A stretch of 64,000 nt of DNA from contig NZ_JAUYOJ010000002.1 in assembly GCF_030697925.1 (NCBI RefSeq), positions 3,369-67,368 on the forward strand. The letters run 5' to 3'. Source of the stretch: Phenylobacterium sp. Lineage in GTDB: Bacteria > Pseudomonadota > Alphaproteobacteria > Caulobacterales > Caulobacteraceae. The position numbers and the translations under genes are program-made. A model generated the notes under the pieces. The model was not told the DNA's origin. It saw only the letters and a list, made by a program, of their open reading frames with translations, and ran no database searches. Below, one piece after another: positions 1,712-52,163 of this stretch; position 1 is the stretch's first letter, and each line of letters opens with the position of its first letter.

Positions 1712-3184
1712 ATGACCGCGCTCACCTCGCTCACCCTGAAGGCCGCGCTGACCGGCCTCGCCGACAAGTCGTTCTCGTCGGAGGAACTCACCGCCGCCCA
1801 CGTGACGGCGGTGGAAGCCGCCCGCCCACTCAACGCCTTCATCCTGGAGACGCCCGAAAAGGCCATCGAGATGGCCAAGGCCTCAGACGCCCGCCGGGCG
1901 AAGGGTGAGGCCGGGGCGCTGGACGGCGCGCCGCTCGGGATCAAGGACCTGTTCTGCACCGAAGGGGTCCGCTCGACCGCCGGGTCGAACATCCTTGGCA
2001 ATTTCGTCCCGACCTACGAATCCACCGTCACCGCCAACCTGTGGCGCGACGGGGCCGTGATGCTGGGCAAGCTGAACCTGGACGAATTCGCCATGGGCTC
2101 GTCCAACGAGACCTCGGCCTTTGGTCCGGTGGTCAATCCCTGGCGCGCGGAGGGCGGCAACGCCAAGCTGACTCCCGGCGGCTCGTCGGGTGGGTCGGCC
2201 GCGGCGGTGGCGGCCGAACTCTGCCTAGGCGCGACGGCGACCGACACAGGCGGCTCGATCCGCCAGCCGGCCTCGTTCACCGGCACGGTGGGCATTAAGC
2301 CGACCTATGGCCGTTGCTCGCGCTGGGGCGTGGTGGCCTTCGCCTCGTCCCTGGACCAGGCCGGACCGATCGCCAAGACCGTCGAGGACGCGGCGATCCT
2401 CCTGAAGTCCATGTCCGGCCACGATGTGAAGGACTCCACCAGCCTGGACGTCGAGGTCCCGGACTTCGCCAGCTTCGTCGGCAAGTCGGTGAAGGGCCTG
2501 CGGATCGGTATTCCCAAGGAGTACCGGGTCGACGGCATGCCGGCCGAGATCGAGAAACTGTGGGAGCAGGGGATCGCCTGGCTGAAGGAGGCCGGCTGCG
2601 AGATCGTCGAGGTGTCCCTGCCGCACACGAAGTACGCCCTGCCGGCCTACTACATCGTGGCGCCGGCCGAGGCCTCCTCGAACCTGGCCCGCTACGACGG
2701 CATGCGGTTTGGGCTGCGCGAAGACGGCGCCAACCTCACCGAGACCTATGAGAAGACCCGCGCCGCGGGCTTCGGCGCGGAGGTCAAGCGCCGCATACTG
2801 ATCGGCACCTATGTGCTCTCGGCCGGCTATTACGACGCCTACTACCTGAAGGCGCTCAAGGTCCGCCGCCGCATCGCCGACGACTTCGACCGGGCCTTCC
2901 AGAAGGTCGACGCCCTGCTGACGCCCACGGCCCCGTCGGCCGCCTTCGGGCTCGGCGAGAACGCGGACGATCCGGTGGCCATGTACCTGAACGACATCTT
3001 CACGGTGACGGTGAACCTGGCGGGCCTGCCCGGCATGAGCATTCCCGCCGGCGTCGACGCCAAGGGCCTGCCGCTCGGCCTGCAGCTGATCGGCAAGGCG
3101 CTGGATGAGGGGACGTTGTTCTCCCTGGGCGGCGCCATCGAGAAGGCCGCCGACTTCCGCGCCAAGCCGGCGCGGTGGTGGTAG
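1712..3184 (+). CDS. gatA: Asp/Glu-tRNA amidotransferase subunit A
   Basis: Amidase signature [32 protein letters not shown]. Confidence 0.98.
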
Positions 3185-6594: not shown

Positions 6595-7344
6595 CTAGGC
6601 CTTCACCGCCTCGACCAGATAGCGCGTGTAGGTGAAGCTCAGCGGCTCGCCGGCCTCTGCTCCCGCCTGGAGCGCCTCGAGGACTTGCCGGTGTCGATCG
6701 ACGTCGAAGTCCTGAACGACCCAGGGAATGGCCTTGAGGAAATACGCCAGGGCTCCGACGTCGCTGAAGGTGACGGCGCCGCGCCAGGTCTCGGCCCGGC
6801 GCACCTCGCACCCGAGAACGCGAAGGTCGTCGACGACCCGATCCAGGGTGTTGCCGGGGTAGGCGAGGGGCGCGCCAAATGCTTCCGCCAGGTCGGCTAG
6901 GTTGTCTCCCGCCACCTGCTGGGTGAGGAAGACGCCGCCTGGCTGAAGCACGCGGACCATTTCGGCGGCCCGGAAACCGCCATGGCGGTTGAGGATCAGG
7001 TCGAATGACCCGTCGTCAAAGGGCATGCCCGCGCGGGCGCCGCCCCTGAAGACCTGCACGCCCAGCGGCTCCAGCCTAGCTCGGGCGATCGGCAGGTTCG
7101 GTTCGAAGCCTTCGACGGCCCGGGCGCGGCCGGGGAAAGGCGCCAGGGATGACAGGATTTCTCCACCCCCGGTGGCGACATCGAGCAGGTCGGTGGACTG
7201 GCAAATCGCCGCCCTGGCCAAAGCCAGATAGTCCCACACGGGTTCGGCCTCGACCATGCGGTCCTTGAGGTAGGAGAAGTCCCAACCCTCGAACGGCGCG
7301 GCCGCGTCGCGTCTCCACTGCTCCAGGCGTGCGTCGCCGGTCAT
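6595..7344 (-). CDS. class I SAM-dependent methyltransferase
   Basis: LLDVATGGGE motif I, PFDDGSFDLI, VLQPGGVF; start ATG at 7344 with RBS-like sequence. Confidence 0.85.
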   Translation of the reverse strand: MTGDARLEQWRRDAAAPFEGWDFSYLKDRMVEAEPVWDYLALARAAICQSTDLLDVATGGGEILSSLAPFPGRARAVEGFEPNLPIARARLEPLGVQVFRGGARAGMPFDDGSFDLILNRHGGFRAAEMVRVLQPGGVFLTQQVAGDNLADLAEAFGAPLAYPGNTLDRVVDDLRVLGCEVRRAETWRGAVTFSDVGALAYFLKAIPWVVQDFDVDRHRQVLEALQAGAEAGEPLSFTYTRYLVEAVKA

Positions 7345-7358
7345 CGCGAGGGAGCTAC

Positions 7359-8702
7359 CTAGCTCTCGGGCGTAAACGCCACGCCGAGCTGCCGAACGGC
7401 GTGGACGAAGTTGTTCGGGGCGATGTCGATCTCGCCGGTCCAGGCGATGTCGGGGAAGCGCGCCAGGATTTGGCGGTAGGCCTCCTCGAGCTGGATCTGG
7501 GCCACGCGCTTGCCGATGCAGACATGGGGGCCGTAGCCGAAGGCGATGTGCTTGTCGGCGTTGGCGCGCCCGACGTCCAGGCGGTCGGGGTCTGCGAACA
7601 CGGCCTCGTCCCGGTTGGCCGCGCCGTAGTACATGATCACCTTCTCGCCCTCGCCGATCATCTGGCCGCCCAGCTCGACGTCGCGGGTGGCGGTCCGGCG
7701 CATGTAGATCACCGGGCTCACCATCCGGATGAACTCGTTGGCCGCATTGGGCAGCAGCGACGGATCGGCGATCAGCCGGGCCTTTTGGTCCGGGAACTCC
7801 GTCAGCAGCTTCATGGCGCCGGAGAGCGTATTGCGGGTGGTGTCGTTGCCGGCGAAGACGATCAGCAGCCAGGAGCCGTCCAGGAACTCGTCCGACAGGA
7901 GTTCCCCGTCCACCTGGGCCCGGGCTATGGCGGACATCAGGTCGGGCTGCGGGTCGAGCCGGCGCTTGCGCAGCATGACCCGGCCGTATTCGAACATCTC
8001 CGAGACATTGGCGTTGAAGGCGTCGATGAAGGCCTGGACCTCTGGCGGAAGGTTGGCCATGTCCAACTGGCCCTCGCCGGACTGCTCGCCGGCGATGTTC
8101 TGGGCCAGTTCCAGGAAGTGCATCCAGCCCAGGAACTTGGGCCGGTCGGCCTCGGGCACGCCCAGGATCTCGCACAGGGTGTAGAGTGGCAGGTGGGCCG
8201 AGAAGTTCGAGACCAGGTCGCAGCGGCCCTTCTTGGCCATGTCGTCCAGCAGCCGGGTCACCTCCGCCGACACTCTGTCTGTCAGTCCGCGCAGATAGGA
8301 TGGCGTGAAGTACGGCATGTGCTCGCGGCGCAGGGCCATGTGCGGCGGGCCGTCCAGGTTGATCATGGCGTCGAGACTGGCGCGGTGGAGCTGGCCGTGG
8401 CGGCCTTCCGGCTCGCCGTAGCCCATCAGGATGCCGCCCTTTTGCGACGAGAAGGTCACCGGATCGGCGTCCACCGTCATGACGTCGGCGTGGCGGGTCA
8501 CCGCCCAGAAGCCCGGGCCGCCTCTGGGCTCGGGATGCCACATCACCGGGGCGTCTCGGCGCAGGCGCGCATAGGCGTTGAAGGGCTGGCCGCCGGTGAA
8601 GCTACCCGCGTCGGCCAGATCGACGCCGGAGAGGGGCGGGTAGGCGACAGCATGGGTGGGTCCGATCCGCCCTTCCACATAGGTGTTGCTGATCAGGTCC
8701 AT
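7359..8702 (-). CDS. cytochrome P450
   Basis: I-helix FAGNDTT, ExxR (EFIR), heme-ligand FGYGPHVCIG. Confidence 0.97.
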   Translation of the reverse strand: MDLISNTYVEGRIGPTHAVAYPPLSGVDLADAGSFTGGQPFNAYARLRRDAPVMWHPEPRGGPGFWAVTRHADVMTVDADPVTFSSQKGGILMGYGEPEGRHGQLHRASLDAMINLDGPPHMALRREHMPYFTPSYLRGLTDRVSAEVTRLLDDMAKKGRCDLVSNFSAHLPLYTLCEILGVPEADRPKFLGWMHFLELAQNIAGEQSGEGQLDMANLPPEVQAFIDAFNANVSEMFEYGRVMLRKRRLDPQPDLMSAIARAQVDGELLSDEFLDGSWLLIVFAGNDTTRNTLSGAMKLLTEFPDQKARLIADPSLLPNAANEFIRMVSPVIYMRRTATRDVELGGQMIGEGEKVIMYYGAANRDEAVFADPDRLDVGRANADKHIAFGYGPHVCIGKRVAQIQLEEAYRQILARFPDIAWTGEIDIAPNNFVHAVRQLGVAFTPES

Positions 8703-20016: not shown

Positions 20017-21045
20017 CTAGGTTTCGACCGGATAGCCGCCCTCTCGCCAGGCCGTCATGCCGCCGTCCAGGGCGACGGCGCGGGTGAAGCCCAGCGACTG
20101 CAGCGTCGCCGCCGCCAGGGTGGAGATCTTGCCCAACTCGCAATAGGTCAAGATGCGCACCGTCGGGTCGGGGAAGGTCTCGTTGATCCGCAGCTCCAGT
20201 TGACCTCTGGGAAGCCAGCGCGCGCCAGGAATGTGGCCCGCCTCGAAGGCGTCACGCTCGCGCACGTCCAGCACCACCAAGTCGTTCTCGCGCGCCTCGA
20301 GCCGCCGCGAGAGTTCGCTCAGTCCGACGAAGGGCACCGCGGCGGAGGCCTCGGCCAGCAGCTGCGCCACCGACTTCTTGCCGCTCATGTTCACCCGTAG
20401 GGCCTCGGTGAGGTGGGTGGGCGCCGAGAGGTTCAACTCGCGCATCATGGCGACGAACCCGGCGCGATCGCGCTTCTGCAGGCGCGGGTTTTCGGCGATC
20501 TCGCGACCGATCGTCGTTGCGTCGCGACCCTTGTACTCGTGGGCCGGATAGACGCCGAGCGCCGGGTCCAGCTTCAGGATCTTGTTGAACAGGCTGTCGT
20601 AGAGCGCTTCCGGGTCGCCTGTCGGCAGGTCGGTGCGCCCGGTTCCGCCGATCAGCAGGGTGTCGCCAGTGAAGATGCGATCCTCCGCCAGCAACGTCAT
20701 GGAGTCGGCCGTGTGCCCGGGCGTGTGCATCGCCTGCAACCGCATCTGTCCGATCAGCAGCATGTCGCCGTCGTCCAGCCGTAGGTCGACAAAGGGCGCG
20801 GGGCTGTCGCGATGCATGACCACCTTGGCGGCGAGCGCGCCGGCGATTTCCCGCGCGCCCGAGAAGTGATCGGCATGGGTATGGGTGTCGATGACATAGT
20901 GGATCACCAGGCCGTCGCGCGCGGCGAGGCCGCGATAACGATCGATCTGGCTGATCTCCGGATCGATCAGGGTCGCGGCGCAGGTTTCGGCGCAGCCGAT
21001 CAGATAGGACCGGCAGCCGCCGACCTGGATAGTCTCGAAGACCAT
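20017..21045 (-). CDS. MBL-fold persulfide dioxygenase (ETHE1-like) fused to C-terminal rhodanese
   Basis: HTHADH, TPGHT, FTGDTL, YPAHEY; rhodanese LDVRE..GHIPGA and active-site CELGKIS. Confidence 0.85.
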   Translation of the reverse strand: MVFETIQVGGCRSYLIGCAETCAATLIDPEISQIDRYRGLAARDGLVIHYVIDTHTHADHFSGAREIAGALAAKVVMHRDSPAPFVDLRLDDGDMLLIGQMRLQAMHTPGHTADSMTLLAEDRIFTGDTLLIGGTGRTDLPTGDPEALYDSLFNKILKLDPALGVYPAHEYKGRDATTIGREIAENPRLQKRDRAGFVAMMRELNLSAPTHLTEALRVNMSGKKSVAQLLAEASAAVPFVGLSELSRRLEARENDLVVLDVRERDAFEAGHIPGARWLPRGQLELRINETFPDPTVRILTYCELGKISTLAAATLQSLGFTRAVALDGGMTAWREGGYPVET

Positions 21046-24168: not shown

Positions 24169-25433
24169 TCCACGCCGGCGGTGGCCAGGATCGCGACTAG
24201 GCCGACGGTCATGCCGCGCACGCTTGGGCCCTTCTCCACGTCGATCCATTCGTCGGTGGAGTGGGCCCGGCCGCCGGTTCCGCCCGAGCCGATGGTGATG
24301 GCGGGCACGCCTCTGGCCATCGGCGCATTGGCGTCGGTGGACGAGGCCTCGAAGCTGGGCGTGTAGCCGAAGGCGGTGATGGCGGCGATCGTATTGGCCA
24401 CGATGGGGGCGTCCTCGGGCGTGTTGCCGGCCGGGCGGTCGCCGATCGGCGTCAGCTCGGCGCTCACGGCGCCGACGCGGGTGGAACGGGCTGCGTTCTC
24501 CGCGGTGACGGCGGCTTCGATCACCGCCTTGAACTGGGCTTCCAGCCTGGCGAGCTCGGCGGCGTCGGCCGAGCGCATGTCGAACTCGACGAACACCTTG
24601 TCGGGGATGGCGTTGACCGAGGTCCCGCCGCCGGCGACCGAGGCCGAATAGGTGACCTTCGGCTCGACGGGCGGCTGGATCGCGTAGAGGTCGGCGATCG
24701 CCTTGCCCATGGCGGCCATCGGATTGACGATCCCGAAGGCGCCGTAGCTGTGCCCGCCCGGACCCTTGAAGGTGACCCGGTAGCGCTTCGAGCCGACGCC
24801 GACATGGGTGATGTGGGCCGGGTCGATGCCGTCGACCGAGAAGAAGGCCTTGGTCCTGTCCTTATACTTCCCCTTGCCGAAGAAATAGCGGACCCCGCGC
24901 AGGTCGCCCGCGCCTTCCTCGCCCACCGTTCCGACGAACAGGATGTCGCTGCGGGTCTTGATCTTGGCCGCGTCCAGGGCCCCGATCCAGGCCAGCAGCA
25001 CGGCCAGGCTGCGGGAATCGTCGGCGACTCCGGGGGCGTAGAGCTTGGTCCCCTCGCGGCGGACCTTCACGTTCGTGCCTTCCGGGAAGACGGTGTCCAG
25101 GTGGGCGGAGACCACCACGACCGGCCCGGCCTTGGTCCCCTTGCGCAGGCCCATGACATTGCCCTCGGGATCGATCTCCACGTCCTTCAGGCCGTGGGCC
25201 TCCAGCATGGCGCGAAAGGCCTTGGCCCGCTCGGCCTCCTTGAAGGGCGGGGCGGGGATCTCGGTCAGGGTGACGATGTCGGCGACCGTGCGATCATGCT
25301 CGGCGTCCAGGGTCGCCGCCGCCGTCTTAAAGGCCGCGCTGCCCACGATCCTCGCCACGTCGTCCTTGGGGGCGGCGAGGGCGGGGCCGGCCACCAGGAC
25401 GGCGAGGACGGCGGAGAGGCAGGTGCGGCGCAT
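24165..25433 (-). CDS. secreted M20/M25/M40 family metallopeptidase
   Basis: SAHLDTVF, GVADD, VGEEG, GGHS, STDAN, AHSTDE. Confidence 0.9.
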   Translation of the reverse strand: MRRTCLSAVLAVLVAGPALAAPKDDVARIVGSAAFKTAAATLDAEHDRTVADIVTLTEIPAPPFKEAERAKAFRAMLEAHGLKDVEIDPEGNVMGLRKGTKAGPVVVVSAHLDTVFPEGTNVKVRREGTKLYAPGVADDSRSLAVLLAWIGALDAAKIKTRSDILFVGTVGEEGAGDLRGVRYFFGKGKYKDRTKAFFSVDGIDPAHITHVGVGSKRYRVTFKGPGGHSYGAFGIVNPMAAMGKAIADLYAIQPPVEPKVTYSASVAGGGTSVNAIPDKVFVEFDMRSADAAELARLEAQFKAVIEAAVTAENAARSTRVGAVSAELTPIGDRPAGNTPEDAPIVANTIAAITAFGYTPSFEASSTDANAPMARGVPAITIGSGGTGGRAHSTDEWIDVEKGPSVRGMTVGLVAILATAGVD

Positions 25434-25490
25434 GGGACATCCGGTCGGGGCTGCGAGTCGGCGGCATACTAGCGGCCGGATGCGGCCCGG

Positions 25491-26030
25491 CTAGGCGCGG
25501 TTGGCGCTGGCCGTATGTTCAAGGGCCATGACGTCGGTGGCGTCCTCGGCGTCCATGATCTTCAGCAGCCGGGCGCGGGCCCGGTTGACCCGGCTCTTGA
25601 TGGTGCCCAGCGCGCAGCCGCAGATCTCGGCGGCCTCCTCGTAGGAGAGGCCCGCGGCGCCGACCAGCACCAGGGCCTCGCGGTGTTCGGGGGGCAGCTG
25701 GGCCAAGGCGTCCTGCAGGGCATGCATGGCCACGCTCCAGTCCTGGGTCGGCGGGCTGCGCAGGGCGCCGGCATATTCCCCCGTCTCGTCGCGCACCTCG
25801 CGGCGGCGGCGGATCACCTGGGTGTAGTAGGTATTGCGCAGGATTGTGAACAGCCAGGCCCGCAGGTTGGTGCCGGGCTCGAACTTGTCGCGGTTGGTCC
25901 AGGCCTTGATCAGGGTGTCCTGAACCAGGTCGTCGGCGTCGGAGCCGTTGTGGCTCAGTGACCAGGCGAACGCCCGCAGCGCCGGGATCATGCCGACGAC
26001 GTCATTACGCCAGTCGCTCTCTCCGCTCAT
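25491..26030 (-). CDS. ECF sigma factor of EcfG/ECF15 type (SigT/SigU-like)
   Basis: IPALRAFAWSL, ADDLVQDTL, TNLRAWLFTILRN, GLSYEEAAEICGCALGTIKSRVNRAR; start ATG at 26030; no adjacent phyR/nepR. Confidence 0.88.
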   Translation of the reverse strand: MSGESDWRNDVVGMIPALRAFAWSLSHNGSDADDLVQDTLIKAWTNRDKFEPGTNLRAWLFTILRNTYYTQVIRRRREVRDETGEYAGALRSPPTQDWSVAMHALQDALAQLPPEHREALVLVGAAGLSYEEAAEICGCALGTIKSRVNRARARLLKIMDAEDATDVMALEHTASANRA

Positions 26031-26092
26031 GATGTCCTCGACACGCCCCGGGCCATCGAGCGCGGCCAGGGGCCGACCTCTCGTGGCAGGTG

Positions 26093-26117
26093 AACGCATC
26101 CGGACTCCATGTGTTCC
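26093..26117 (-). promoter_or_regulatory. EcfG/SigT-type promoter GGAAC-N16-CGTT for the sigma gene
   Basis: + strand AACG (26093-96), 16 nt, GTTCC (26113-17). Confidence 0.8.
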
Positions 26118-26160
26118 GCGTGTTCCGCCTTGCGGATGGTCGGTGAATACCCACGTTACC

Positions 26161-26185
26161 GGAACTCCCCGGGGGTGGCGGCGTT
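26161..26185 (+). promoter_or_regulatory. EcfG/SigT-type promoter GGAAC-N16-CGTT for egtB-egtD
   Basis: GGAAC tccccgggggtggcgg CGTT, 55 nt upstream of the ATG. Confidence 0.8.
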
Positions 26186-26239
26186 TGGCGACTCGGTTCG
26201 CCGAAGACATCCCTTCAACGCGGTGACAGGAGCAGTCCC

Positions 26240-28462
26240 ATGGCGCCATCTGACGAGACTGCCGCCGCGCCGGCCTTGCACAGGGCCGCCCAGGCGGAGG
26301 CCGCCGCGCGCTACCTGCGCGTGCGTGAGGCCAGCCTGGCCATGACCGCGCATCTGTCGGCCGAAGACCAGCTCGCCCAGTCGATGCCCGACGCCAGCCC
26401 GACCAAGTGGCACCTGGCCCACACAACCTGGTTCTTCGAGACCTTCCTGCTGATCCCGAGGCTGGCCGACTACCGGCCGTTCAATCGCAGCTTCGCCTAT
26501 CTGTTCAACTCGTATTACGAGGCTCTCGGCCCCCGCCAGCCGCGGCCGGAGCGCGGACTGCTGACCCGCCCGTCGCTGGACGAGGTCAAGGCCTATCGCG
26601 CCCATGTGGACGACGGCATGATCCGGCTGCTGCGCCGCGACGCTTGCGCGGTCGCCGATCTGCTGGATCTGGGCCTGGCCCATGAGGAACAGCATCAGGA
26701 GCTGATCCTGATGGACATCCTGCACCTGTTCTCCCAGTCGCCGCTGAAGCCTGCCTACGCCCCGGCGCCGGCCCTGCCGGTGGGCGCTGATCCCGGTCCC
26801 GCGCGGCCCGTGGACTTCGCCGGGGGCCTGGTGGAGATCGGCCATTCGGGCGCGGACTTCGCCTTCGACAACGAGGGGCCGCGTCACAAGGTCTATCTGC
26901 AGCCCTATCGCATGGCCGACCGGCTGGTGACGAACAGCGAGTGGCTGGCCTTCATGGCCGACGGCGGTTACGCGCGCCCCGAACTCTGGCTCTCGGAAGG
27001 CTGGGCTACGGTGCAGGCCGAAGGTTGGAATGCGCCGCTCTACTGGCAAGAGGCGCCATCGGGTTGGCGAGCCATGACCCTGCAGGGTCTGCGCGCCATC
27101 GCCCCGCACGCCCCGGTGACCCACATCAGCTTCTACGAGGCTGACGCCTATGCCACCTGGGCCGGGGCGCGCCTGCCGACCGAGGCCGAGTGGGAGCACG
27201 CCGCCCGCGACATCCCGATGCGCGGCAACTTTCTCGGCAGCGGTCAGTTCGGCCCCGCCGCGACCCCAGCCGGGGCGTCGGGCCTGCGCCAGATGTTCGG
27301 CGACACCTGGGAATGGACCCGTAGCGCCTATGGCCCCTATCCCGGATTCCATCCGGCCGATGGGGCGGTGGGCGAGTACAACGGCAAGTTCATGATCGGC
27401 CAGATGGTGCTGCGCGGTGGCTGCTGCGTGACGCCGCAGGGCCACACGCGGGCCAGCTATCGCAACTTCTTCCAGCCGCAGCAGCGCTGGATGTTCTCGG
27501 GCCTGCGCCTGGCCTGGGACGCCATGGTCCGGGTCGAGGACGACGGCAGCGCCTTCGCCGCTGACGTGCGCCGCGGTCTGTCCCAGCGTCGCAAGGAGTT
27601 GCCGGCCAAGTACTTCTACGACGCCGAGGGCTCGGCCCTGTTCGAGGCGATCACCGACCTGCCGGAATACTATCCGACCCGCACCGAGGTCGCCCTGTTA
27701 CGCGCGACGGCGCCGGACATGGCCTCCCACATTCCGGCTGGCGCGGCCCTGGTGGAGTTCGGCAGCGGCGCCAGCACCAAGACCCGCATCCTGCTCGACG
27801 CGGCGCCGCGGACCGGGGTCTATGTCCCCATCGACATCAGCCGCTCGGCGCTCGACGCCGCCGCTGAAGCCATCGGCCGCGACTATCCGGGCCTTGAGGT
27901 GGCGCCTCTGGTGGACGACTTCACCACGGCGCTGGACCTGCCGGGCGAGGTGGGGGACCGACCCCGAGTCGGCTTCTTCCCGGGCTCGACCATCGGCAAC
28001 TTCCGGCCCCAGGAGGTGGTGGCCTTCCTGACCGCGGCCAGGCATCTGCTGGGCGAGGGCGCCGGCTTCCTGGTGGGGATAGACCTGGTCAAGGACGCCG
28101 GGACCCTGGTGGCGGCCTATGACGACGCCCAGGGCGTCACGGCCGCCTTCAACCTGAATCTTCTGGCGCGGATCAATCGGGAGCTGGAGGGGGATTTCGA
28201 TCTCTCGGCCTTCGAGCACCGGGCGGTGTGGAACGCGGAGGAAAGCCGGATGGAGATGCATCTGGTGAGCCTGCGCGATCAGGGCGTCCGCGCGGCGGGG
28301 GCCACGTTCCGCTTCAAGAGCGGCGAGACGATCCATACGGAAAACTCCTACAAGTTCACCGTGGACGGCTTCGCGAAGCTGGCGGAACAGGCGGGGTGGA
28401 AGCTGGAGCGGCGCTGGGAAAGCCCCGCTCCGAGCTTCGCGGTGGTCCTACTGAGAGCCTAG
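26240..28462 (+). CDS. egtB-egtD: ergothioneine biosynthesis fusion: sulfoxide synthase EgtB plus histidine trimethylase EgtD
   Basis: N-terminal part: SPTKWHLAH, FNSYY, HEEQHQE, FGE-like LPTEAEWE, GEYNGKFM. C-terminal part: KELPAKYFYD, EYYPTRTE, EFGSG, FPGSTIGN, GVTAAFNLN, IHTENSYK. Single reading frame. Confidence 0.92.
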   Translation: MAPSDETAAAPALHRAAQAEAAARYLRVREASLAMTAHLSAEDQLAQSMPDASPTKWHLAHTTWFFETFLLIPRLADYRPFNRSFAYLFNSYYEALGPRQPRPERGLLTRPSLDEVKAYRAHVDDGMIRLLRRDACAVADLLDLGLAHEEQHQELILMDILHLFSQSPLKPAYAPAPALPVGADPGPARPVDFAGGLVEIGHSGADFAFDNEGPRHKVYLQPYRMADRLVTNSEWLAFMADGGYARPELWLSEGWATVQAEGWNAPLYWQEAPSGWRAMTLQGLRAIAPHAPVTHISFYEADAYATWAGARLPTEAEWEHAARDIPMRGNFLGSGQFGPAATPAGASGLRQMFGDTWEWTRSAYGPYPGFHPADGAVGEYNGKFMIGQMVLRGGCCVTPQGHTRASYRNFFQPQQRWMFSGLRLAWDAMVRVEDDGSAFAADVRRGLSQRRKELPAKYFYDAEGSALFEAITDLPEYYPTRTEVALLRATAPDMASHIPAGAALVEFGSGASTKTRILLDAAPRTGVYVPIDISRSALDAAAEAIGRDYPGLEVAPLVDDFTTALDLPGEVGDRPRVGFFPGSTIGNFRPQEVVAFLTAARHLLGEGAGFLVGIDLVKDAGTLVAAYDDAQGVTAAFNLNLLARINRELEGDFDLSAFEHRAVWNAEESRMEMHLVSLRDQGVRAAGATFRFKSGETIHTENSYKFTVDGFAKLAEQAGWKLERRWESPAPSFAVVLLRA

Positions 28463-28677
28463 CTCTCCAGGCGTTCGCCGCGGGTGCGTCCGCCCCCACG
28501 GGACGATTCCCCGCCCTTGCGACCCGCCGAAGCCGCGAGGTCGCGGTCCTTGGCGAAACTACGTTTCTCACCCGGGACGCTGGCGCCGCCCTTGCGGGCG
28601 ATCTCGCGTCGGCGTTCGGGATTCATGGCTGCGAACCCTCGGCGGGATTTCGGCTTGGCGTTCGGATCAAGGTCCAT
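28459..28677 (-). CDS. KGG-repeat general stress protein (GsiB/YciG-like)
   Basis: RGFAAMNPERRREIARKGG...AASAGRKGG; start ATG at 28677 with RBS GAGGAG. Confidence 0.88.
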   Translation of the reverse strand: MDLDPNAKPKSRRGFAAMNPERRREIARKGGASVPGEKRSFAKDRDLAASAGRKGGESSRGGGRTRGERLES

Positions 28678-28799
28678 GAGCGACTCCTCTAATGCGTCGA
28701 CCGTTGGGGGATGCGGCGACGCCGCGACTTCCGTTACGGTCAAGCAAACTCGCCAGATGCGGCTGAGGTTGCGAGGAAAGTGCAGTCGGCGCCTGCGAC

Positions 28800-30050
28800 C
28801 TATTCGCGCCTTAGCGCCTCGATGGGGTCGAGCCGCGCTGCGCGCCAGGACGGATAGGCCCCGAACACCAGGCCCACGAGGCTGGAAAACCCTAGCGCAA
28901 TAGGGCCTGCCCACGGTGGAATCGCCACAGGCCAGGCGCCCAGCTTGGCGACGGCGACGGCCCCAAGCACACCGATCAGCAGGCCGATCAGGCCGCCGGC
29001 CAACGAAAGCGTGATCGCCTCGAGGGCAAATTGAATCAGAACCTGGGAGCGTTTCGCCCCCACCGCCATGCGCAGGCCGATCTCCCGGGTGCGCTCGGTG
29101 ACGGCCACCAGCATGATGTTCATGATGCCGACCCCGCCCACCACCAGCGACACCGCGGCCACCGCGGCCAGCAGGATGGTGAAGGTGGCGACGGCCGCCT
29201 GGGAGGCCTGGAGGATCGAGGCCATGTTCTGGGTCTGGAAATCGTCATCGTCTCCGGCGCGGATGCGATGCTGCTCGCGCAGCAGGTTGACGACGTCTTC
29301 CTGCACCCGGTCCAGGCTGTCGGCGTCGACGGCCTTCACATAGATGGTCTGGACGGTGTCGCCGCGGGCGCGGCGGCCGACGATGCGCGAGCGCACCGCT
29401 TCGAGCGGACCCAGCAGGACATCGTCCTGGTCCTGGCCGAAGCTCGACTGACCCTTGGATTCCAGCACCCCGATCACCTCGAAGGGCACGCTGCGCACCC
29501 GCACCCGGCGGCCGACGGGGTCGAGATCGCCCCACAGCTCGCGCGCCACGGTCTGGCCGATCACCACGACCTTGCGGCCCTGGCGCGACTCCCGCTCGTC
29601 GAACATGCGGCCCGAGGCGATGGCGAGGTCGCGGGCGACCAGGTAGTCCGGGGTCACCCCCTCGATACGGCTGTTCCAGTTGGCGCCGTCGGCGGTGAGC
29701 TGGGCCTGGCCGCGCACCACGGGGGCGATGGCGGCGACGTTCTCGACCTGTTTGGCGATGGCTTCGGCGTCGGCGTCCTTCAGAGACTGACCTGAACCCG
29801 CGGCGCCCATCACGAAGCCGCCTCCGCCGCCCCCGGCGCCGCCTCGGGAGGCGCCAGGCGAGACGATGATCAGGTTGGAGCCGAGCCCGGCGATTGTCGA
29901 GGTCACCCGCTGCTGCGCGCCCAGGCCGATGGAGGTCATCATCACCACGGCGGCCACCCCGATCACCACGCCCAGCGAGGTTAGGGCGGAGCGCATCGGG
30001 TGAGCGATGATGGCTCCCGTGGCGAAACGCAGAAGCTCGATGGAGCGCAT
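28800..30050 (-). CDS. MacB-like ABC permease (FtsX domain)
   Basis: [48 protein letters not shown]. Confidence 0.93.
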
Positions 30051-50969: not shown

Positions 50970-51512
50970 GTGCAGGAGATCGAACAGCGCTTACGGCGCC
51001 TGATGATCGACGGCCTGTCGGGCGACGGGACCGCCTATCGCGACCTGTTGCGCGAATTGACCCCGCGGCTGCGCGCCTTTTTCCGGCGCCGGTTGGTCGG
51101 CTGGCCGGAGGACTGCGAGGACCTGGTGCAAGAGACCCTGCTGGCGGTGCATGCGCGACGCCACACCTACGACGCCGGTCAGCCCTTTACGGCCTGGGCC
51201 TACGCCGTGGCGCGCTACAAGCTGGTCGATTGGCACCGCCGCCACCGCCGCCGCGAGGCCCTGCACGATCCGGTGGAGGATCGGATCGAGGAATTGTTCG
51301 CCGAGATGGAACACGACGCCTGCGACGCCCAGCGGGATGTCCGGGCGATGCTGGAGACACTGCCCGCGAAGCAGCGCGAGCCAATCCGCCTGGTCAAGCT
51401 GGAGGGCTTGAGCGTCGCCGAGGCTGCGGCCCGCACCGGCCTGTCGGTTTCGGCGGTGAAGATCGGCGTGCACAGGGGCTTGAGGGCCCTGGCGGTGAGG
51501 TTCAAGTCGTGA
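50970..51512 (+). CDS. sigF: ECF sigma factor, SigF/ECF16 type
   Basis: GDGTAYRDLL, EDLVQETLLAVH, FTAWAYAVARYK, VKIGVHRGL; adjacent to nrsF. Confidence 0.88.
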   Translation: MQEIEQRLRRLMIDGLSGDGTAYRDLLRELTPRLRAFFRRRLVGWPEDCEDLVQETLLAVHARRHTYDAGQPFTAWAYAVARYKLVDWHRRHRRREALHDPVEDRIEELFAEMEHDACDAQRDVRAMLETLPAKQREPIRLVKLEGLSVAEAAARTGLSVSAVKIGVHRGLRALAVRFKS

Positions 51513-51521
51513 GGCCCGACG

Positions 51522-52163
51522 ATGCACACTGACGACCTCGCCGAGATGCTGGGCCGCAACGCCGAGGCCGAGACAGTCGGTCGCCCTGCGCGATGGTGGG
51601 CCCTCGCCGTCGCCGGCGGCGTGGCGGCCACAGCGGGGCTGATGCTCATCACCCTGGGCCTGCAGCCACGCCTGGCCACGATGATCGAGACGCCGGCCTG
51701 GTTGGGCAAGGCCGGGTTCGGCCTGGCCATGGCCCTGGCGGGGCTGGCCGCCGCCACGCGGCTGGCGCGGCCCGGCGCGGCCAGGCCCTGGCTGATCGCC
51801 CTGGCGCTGGCGCCGCTCGCCCTGCTCTGGCTGGCTGCGGCGATCCAGTTGCTGGGGGCGCCAGCGGAACTGCGCGCCGAGCTCGTCATGGGCCGGACTT
51901 GGCGCGAGTGCCCCTGGCGGGTGGCGAGCCTGTCGGTCCCGGCCCTGGTCGGGGCGCTCCTGGTCCTGCGGCGAATGGCGCCGACCCGGCCGCGGCTGGC
52001 GGGGGCTGCGGCTGGTCTGTTTGCGGGCGGCGTCGGCGCGGCGGTCTACGCCTTCCACTGTCCGGAACTCGCCCCGGCCTTCGTGGCGGTGTGGTATGTG
52101 GCGGGGGTGCTGACTCCCACGACGTTCGGCGCCCTGATCGGCCCGCGCGTCCTGCGCTGGTGA
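51522..52163 (+). CDS. nrsF: NrsF/DUF1109 membrane anti-sigma factor
   Basis: MHTDDL, multi-TM, two Cys (WRECP, YAFHCPE), FVAVWY. Confidence 0.88.
   Translation: MHTDDLAEMLGRNAEAETVGRPARWWALAVAGGVAATAGLMLITLGLQPRLATMIETPAWLGKAGFGLAMALAGLAAATRLARPGAARPWLIALALAPLALLWLAAAIQLLGAPAELRAELVMGRTWRECPWRVASLSVPALVGALLVLRRMAPTRPRLAGAAAGLFAGGVGAAVYAFHCPELAPAFVAVWYVAGVLTPTTFGALIGPRVLRW

Follow-up and report, generated by a model that had tools for sequence, protein, structure and literature searches.

Here, we report a pair of back-to-back promoters of the general-stress type that lies between the gene of an EcfG-family sigma factor and a gene of ergothioneine biosynthesis in Phenylobacterium sp. On the strength of motif, gene neighborhood and conservation in relatives, we consider it probable that these are two divergent EcfG (ECF15) promoters controlled by PhyR-NepR-EcfG, one of which drives the sigma gene and the other egtBD. 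Ergothioneine is a widespread microbial antioxidant, and to our knowledge its regulation outside the actinobacteria has barely been studied. The analysis covered the whole 64-kb stretch of DNA (the window) together with orthologous loci from other genomes, and the following features of the window are of concern here.

25491-26030, minus strand: gene of an EcfG-family ECF sigma factor, 179 aa (Pfam Sigma70_r2, Sigma70_r4_2 and PhyR_sigma2)
26093-26117, minus strand: sigma-facing EcfG-type promoter, exact match (-35 box GGAAC at 26113-26117, -10 box CGTT at 26093-26096)
26111-26128, no strand: 9-bp tandem duplication, two copies of GTGTTCCGC, between the promoters, which yields a second, mis-spaced GGAAC
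26161-26185, plus strand: egtBD-facing EcfG-type promoter, exact match (-35 box GGAAC at 26161-26165, -10 box CGTT at 26182-26185)
26240-28462, plus strand: egtBD, gene of a 740-aa EgtB-EgtD fusion (EgtB at residues 22-425, EgtD at residues 439-737)
28459-28677, minus strand: gene of a KGG-repeat stress protein, 72 aa (PF10685, 48.4 bits), convergent with egtBD
28747-28772, minus strand: putative variant EcfG promoter of the KGG gene, GCAAC-N17-AGTT

The original prediction had named two exact GGAAC-N16-CGTT motifs on opposite strands, 43 bp apart, and both are present as described. They are the only two exact matches in the window, for which the chance expectation is 0.30, and at least two matches were obtained in 4 of 100 shuffles of the same sequence. 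GGAAC and CGTT at N15 or N17 spacing are absent from the whole 64-kb window, and copies with one mismatch show no excess over the chance level across it. The reading of GGAAC-N16-CGTT as the alphaproteobacterial general-stress consensus agrees with the literature, in which it is the accepted promoter consensus of this response (PMC7083833). Both sites lie inside one 209-bp intergenic region and are separated by a gap of 43 bp (26118-26160); since the -35 boxes are the proximal ones, the two promoters stand back to back and are divergent. The sigma ATG (26030) is located 62 nt past the CGTT of the minus-strand site and the egtBD ATG (26240) 54 nt past that of the plus-strand site, the corresponding distance in relatives being 24-84 nt, and an AGGAG ribosome-binding site precedes the egtBD ATG by 7 nt. 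If transcription starts are reckoned 6-9 nt downstream of the -10 box, we infer a start near 26084-26087 for the minus-strand promoter and near 26191-26194 for the plus-strand promoter. As the marks of an EcfG-type (ECF15) promoter we took the GGAAC and CGTT boxes 16-17 nt apart, the orientation, the distance to the start codon and the conservation of the boxes; both sites have the spacing, orientation and start distance of such promoters and are conserved across orthologous loci. Please note that several ECF groups share GGAAC/CGT-type boxes, so the motif alone cannot prove which sigma factor reads the promoter.

The gap between the two sites varies within the genus: three other Phenylobacterium loci lack the GTGTTCCGC duplication and have a gap of 33 bp, and the near-identical locus of Phenylobacterium sp. 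LH3H17 (CP101283.1), whose sigma factor is 98% identical, has 43 bp likewise. A riboswitch or structured leader for egtBD was considered and rejected, with no Rfam match in the 5' UTR of egtBD and fold z-scores of -0.8 to +0.7 in five loci. Among metagenomes, the sequence occurs in DNA runs only, chiefly from groundwater and soil. For a Brevundimonas locus, contigs from four RNA-labelled runs (the label is a guess for three of them) span or flank the promoter and give no clear start.

Judged by its sequence, the gene on the left belongs to the EcfG family. Sigma70_r2 covers residues 17-78 and Sigma70_r4_2 residues 105-156 (numbered on a 180-residue translation that begins one codon before the ATG), i.e., the protein has the two-domain ECF architecture with sigma2 and sigma4 only. 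It matches PF22029 PhyR_sigma2 with E = 1.3e-12, and it is 27% identical (E = 3e-6) to the N-terminal sigma-like domain of a PhyR protein. The best match in the PDB is 5uxx_A (E = 6.5e-50, with the next match at 3.5e-22), which we take to be from the Bartonella EcfG-NepR complex; a NepR query retrieved no partner chain of 5uxx, and the literature yielded nothing relevant on this entry. Homologues across Phenylobacterium are 85-99% identical and 178-179 aa long, and because of this length the start was set at ATG 26030. By its closest homologues, the window belongs to Phenylobacterium of the Caulobacteraceae. Homologue searches with the sigma factor returned generically named Phenylobacterium and Caulobacter sigmas, none of them named SigU (CC_2883) or SigT. 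With a predicted EcfG-type promoter of its own, it is plausible that the sigma gene would be under positive feedback.

The product of the gene on the right was identified as both enzymes in one chain. It scores 577.6 bits against TIGR03440 (EgtB, ergothioneine sulfoxide synthase; cut-off 360) and 405.4 bits against TIGR03438 (EgtD, histidine N-alpha-methyltransferase; cut-off 290.9), and its score with the model of the selenoneine synthase SenA, 348, stays below the cut-off of 420. The two motifs had been predicted to face an EcfG-like sigma gene and egtB-egtD; the targets were named correctly, but egtBD is one fused 740-aa ORF rather than two genes. The ~740-aa fusion is the usual form among homologues, both in the clade and far outside it. 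EgtB-EgtD as a single polypeptide also occurs in Bacteroidota, Acidobacteriota and Pseudomonas, with matches covering residues ~20-740. Among the genes neighboring egtBD no C-S lyase was identified, so ergothioneine is the presumed end product. A further gene of sulfur metabolism, a metallo-beta-lactamase and rhodanese fusion (20017-21045, minus strand), is situated 5 kb from the egt gene; we presume that this architecture is persulfide-dioxygenase-like.

The KGG gene meets egtBD head-on. Their frames overlap by 4 bp at the 3' ends (28459-28462) with no terminator between them, so transcription from either side would enter the other gene. Its promoter candidate is weak if taken alone, being two mismatches away from the consensus; in most orthologues of the KGG gene, G[GC]AAC-N16/17-[GA]GTT occupies the equivalent place, and the general-stress promoters of Sphingopyxis granuli include variants with GCAAC as the -35 box and GGTT as the -10 box, a GGTT promoter being among the templates picked for in vitro transcription in that work (PMC7083833). 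Of the 80 egtB loci that we compared, 14 have a KGG homologue, which in 13 of them lies directly downstream of egtB(D) and convergent with it; the five additional loci (L081-L085), found via homologues of the sigma factor, all have one too. The sigma gene, egtBD and the KGG gene thus appear to form a small general-stress module.

To see how far the promoter in front of egtB extends beyond Phenylobacterium, i.e., the conservation in relatives by which the original prediction was to be checked, we used the 80 egtB(D) loci, one genome per species, and looked for an exact coding-strand GGAAC-N16/17-CGTT no more than 400 bp before egtB. Such a motif was found in 13 of 35 alphaproteobacterial loci vs 0 of 44 others (Fisher p = 5.6e-6), so the motif is indeed conserved, and this in three genera: it precedes egtB in 3/4 Phenylobacterium, 5/5 Bradyrhizobium and 3/4 named Brevundimonas, and additionally in one Brevundimonas-like MAG and one further alphaproteobacterial MAG. 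If one mismatch is allowed within 250 bp upstream, the numbers are 21/35 vs 3/44 (p = 3e-7). With the additional loci, the exact egtB-facing motif was seen in L001-3, L083, L085, L075, the Brevundimonas loci L008, L010, L013 and L019 and the Bradyrhizobium loci L009, L012, L014, L015 and L016. The background is low, with six matches in 421 kb of non-alphaproteobacterial loci, none of them near egtB; 19 of the 28 alphaproteobacterial matches are at egtB or the sigma gene. Alignments of the Bradyrhizobium and the Brevundimonas loci show GGAAC and CGTT to be invariant and the spacer to be variable, and such invariant boxes with diverging spacers are what a phylogenetic footprint looks like at the level of sequence. 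The comparison shows that egtB has a predicted EcfG-type promoter with or without an adjacent sigma gene. A strongly conserved block, GAGGCTTTTTTCCCGTAACG-AGCCCCTATCTAGGACG, was also noticed ~20-60 nt upstream of the -35 box of the five Bradyrhizobium egtBD genes; it could terminate transcription of the gene upstream or serve as another regulatory site.

In 6 of the 80 loci, egtB is adjoined by a divergent homologue of the sigma factor (74-86% identical). The same linkage is seen in L081-L085, and together with the window this gives a set of 12 sigma-adjacent loci. Of these, 11 have the exact sigma-facing site and six the exact egtB-facing one, which is missing in L006, L007, L076, L081, L082 and L084. 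When seven of the sigma-egtB intergenic regions were aligned, AACG and GTTCC, i.e., the sigma-facing promoter, were the only invariant blocks. Loci with a single site can be read on the opposite strand as nnAAC-N16-nGTT (GAAAC-N16-CGTT in L076, GAAAC-N16-TGTT in L084), and we speculate that in the compact loci L076, L081, L082 and L084 one quasi-palindromic site may fire both ways, serving the sigma gene in one direction and egtB in the other. The locus of Caulobacter sp. 17J80-11 (L083) is of another kind: exact GGAAC-N16/17-CGTT sites stand at 3041-3066 before a small gene without annotation, at 6825-6849 before egtBD, at 7961-7985 before a PRC-barrel gene and at 8428-8453 before the gene that follows, and the sigma gene itself is without a canonical site, which recalls ecfG2 of S. 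granuli.

The sigma factor had been proposed to be a secondary, SigU-like one. This label found no support, since the orthologous block adjoins phyR in five relatives and nepR in four of them. The five are the Caulobacteraceae loci L076 (Caulobacter sp. S45), L081, L082, L083 and L084, in which the sigma-egtB-KGG block is flanked by phyR, and in L076 and L081-L083 it is also flanked by nepR, which passes or approaches the Pfam cut-off, so that phyR and the sigma gene (and nepR in the four) are found within ~4 kb. In L076, L081, L082 and L084, phyR has an exact EcfG-type promoter of its own (in L083 the site is not exact). The sigma factor of the window is 76-80% identical to the five phyR-linked sigmas, and the window and LH3H17 have orthologues of the outer flanks of the phyR-linked loci: amino-acid permease (71% identical), metallo-beta-lactamase (74%), response regulator (71-78%) and histidine kinase (55-57%). 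In Phenylobacterium, an HlyD-ABC-MacB operon is found on the side of phyR, and on the side of nepR there is an M20 peptidase gene. By synteny, the Phenylobacterium locus is thus the positional equivalent of the general-stress core locus minus phyR and nepR. Its sigma factor is a positional orthologue of the EcfG of the core locus, which makes an accessory paralogue less likely. The primary EcfG copy is marked by being linked to nepR and phyR; membership in the family does not depend on this.

Neither phyR nor nepR was found within the 64-kb window, where a NepR HMM run on the six-frame translation detected nothing. An ORF at 25045-25494 (plus strand) was considered as a convergent nepR and rejected, since its translation is a spurious antisense reading of the M20 peptidase gene. 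A weak sigma paralogue at 51108-51479 was likewise rejected as PhyR, since this ECF sigma is SigF-like and comes with an NrsF anti-sigma. This gene, the only other ECF sigma gene in the window, encodes 180 aa and is followed by an NrsF-family anti-sigma gene (50970-52163 for both; PF06532, 205 bits), an arrangement that resembles the SigF-NrsF pair. In Caulobacter, SigF of that pair has a link to heavy-metal stress.

We found two published data sets that bear on the EcfG dependence of egt genes. The general-stress (EcfG1/EcfG2) regulon of S. granuli TFA includes egtB and egtD, which are 3.0-fold and 6.7-fold down, respectively, when both ecfG1 and ecfG2 are missing; the same promoters can be read by paralogous EcfG sigmas in this species (de Dios et al. 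2020, PMC7083833). In the ecfG mutant of Sphingomonas melonis Fr1, a 'TIGR03440 family protein' is at log2 -3.96 and the adjacent 'probable methyltransferase' at log2 -3.86, so that the EgtB and EgtD homologues are about 15-fold down, and an EcfG motif is predicted 52 bp upstream (Gottschlich et al. 2019, PMC6599016, Table S1). The link had been thought undescribed; it is in fact contained in both works, S. granuli naming it in one sentence (PMC7083833) and S. melonis carrying the data in the supplement under generic gene names, with ergothioneine named in neither the supplementary tables nor the main text (PMC6599016). We found no literature linking ergothioneine to the general stress response in Caulobacteraceae, Bradyrhizobium or Methylobacterium, and literature on ergothioneine with Caulobacter, PhyR, RpoE2 or SigT yielded nothing except the S. 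granuli paper. The supplements of PMC8092242 (Bradyrhizobium) hold no EcfG regulon list. A review credits ergothioneine with helping Methylobacterium to survive heat, UV and sunlight. That ergothioneine production would be a direct output of the general stress response, the central proposal, is well supported by sequence comparison and by what has been published on two other species.

The motifs, the gene identities, their conservation and the synteny were seen directly, and from them we deduce sigma usage, start positions, stress induction and product in the following scheme. According to the established partner switch, stress would lead to phosphorylated PhyR, which would capture NepR and so release EcfG; with neither phyR nor nepR in the window, this locus is presumed to be tied to the switch. 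RNA polymerase with EcfG would then start leftwards into the sigma gene, giving auto- or cross-activation (a feedback or a cascade), and rightwards into egtBD, raising the level of EgtBD. The EgtD part would methylate histidine to hercynine, the EgtB part would add sulfur from a thiol donor with oxygen and iron, and a C-S lyase would carry out the last step to ergothioneine. The third, weaker EcfG-type promoter would co-induce the convergent KGG gene.

Could the adjacent sigma factor instead be a dedicated regulator of egtBD with a signal of its own, uncoupled from PhyR-NepR? The tight divergent linkage of sigma gene and egtB, which is kept in 12 loci, and the absence of phyR and nepR from the window would fit such a private circuit. 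However, Brevundimonas and Bradyrhizobium have the motif before egtB without any sigma gene next to it, the orthologous sigma gene sits beside nepR and phyR in relatives, and egtBD needs the general EcfG in the two sphingomonads; we therefore regard a dedicated circuit as unlikely. It is also conceivable that a housekeeping promoter, so far missed, drives most of the egtBD expression and that the EcfG site is minor. Alphaproteobacterial sigma-70 promoters are degenerate and easily overlooked, and half of the sigma-adjacent loci are without an exact egtB-facing site; yet no sigma-70-like site was found when 25300-29100 was searched, the consensus EcfG boxes are kept in three genera, and the 8- to 15-fold EcfG dependence in S. 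melonis speaks against it as well, which leaves this idea with quite a low probability. That both motifs are functionless chance matches is hardly credible and effectively refuted by the comparative data: the motif does specify nine bases only, and shuffling occasionally yields two copies, but both sites occupy one intergenic region in the right orientation and at the right spacing to the start codons, and they are kept in orthologous loci while the surroundings diverge.

Returning to control by the general EcfG pathway, which we prefer, the locus and its relatives suggest that in Caulobacteraceae and Bradyrhizobium the egt genes are served by general-stress promoters of the consensus type, and that some genomes have these genes within the regulatory locus. 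Three findings are new: how widely the promoter is conserved, how well it fits the consensus, and that in some Caulobacteraceae egtB(D)-KGG is embedded in the regulatory locus. Only tentatively would we go further and propose jointly that egtB(D) and KGG were built into the core locus in part of the Caulobacteraceae, that ergothioneine is an ancestral core output in several alphaproteobacterial orders, and that the single site of the compact loci is bidirectional; this combined reading is possible, and we would not be surprised if it failed. The model of when soil and water Alphaproteobacteria make ergothioneine is testable, and the locus offers a clean promoter pair for studying the division of work among paralogous EcfG sigmas. 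The accepted view of how the general stress response works stays as it was.

Among the closest known systems is that of S. granuli TFA, in which the egt genes also stand behind an EcfG-type promoter and EcfG dependence was measured. The S. granuli egt promoter is degenerate (GAAAC...GATT), and egtB and egtD are separate there with no reported sigma or phyR neighbor; the promoter in the window is the perfect consensus, the gene is fused and a divergent sigma gene is adjacent. The S. melonis egt promoter, GCAAC...GCGCT, is non-consensus as well, in contrast to the exact consensus in the window. In the canonical phyR/nepR-ecfG core locus, nepR is upstream of the sigma gene in an operon, whereas in L076 and L081-L083 nepR is convergent with the sigma gene, and L076 and L081-L084 have egtB(D) and KGG between the sigma gene and phyR. 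These non-canonical layouts extend over 2978-6710 in L076, 3057-6869 in L081, 1212-6813 in L082 and 3097-7816 in L083. Unlike the core locus, the window is without phyR and nepR and has a MacAB-type efflux operon on the phyR side. As for sigU of C. crescentus, it has a SigT motif, is 15.9-fold SigT-dependent and thereby shows the strongest SigT dependence of the regulators in Table 1 of Britos et al. (2011, PMC3073932). The window resembles it in having an EcfG-family sigma gene behind an EcfG-type promoter with no nepR beside it; unlike in the SigT-to-sigU cascade, the sigma factor of the window is a positional orthologue of the sigmas of phyR/nepR loci in other Caulobacteraceae, which argues against a purely accessory role.
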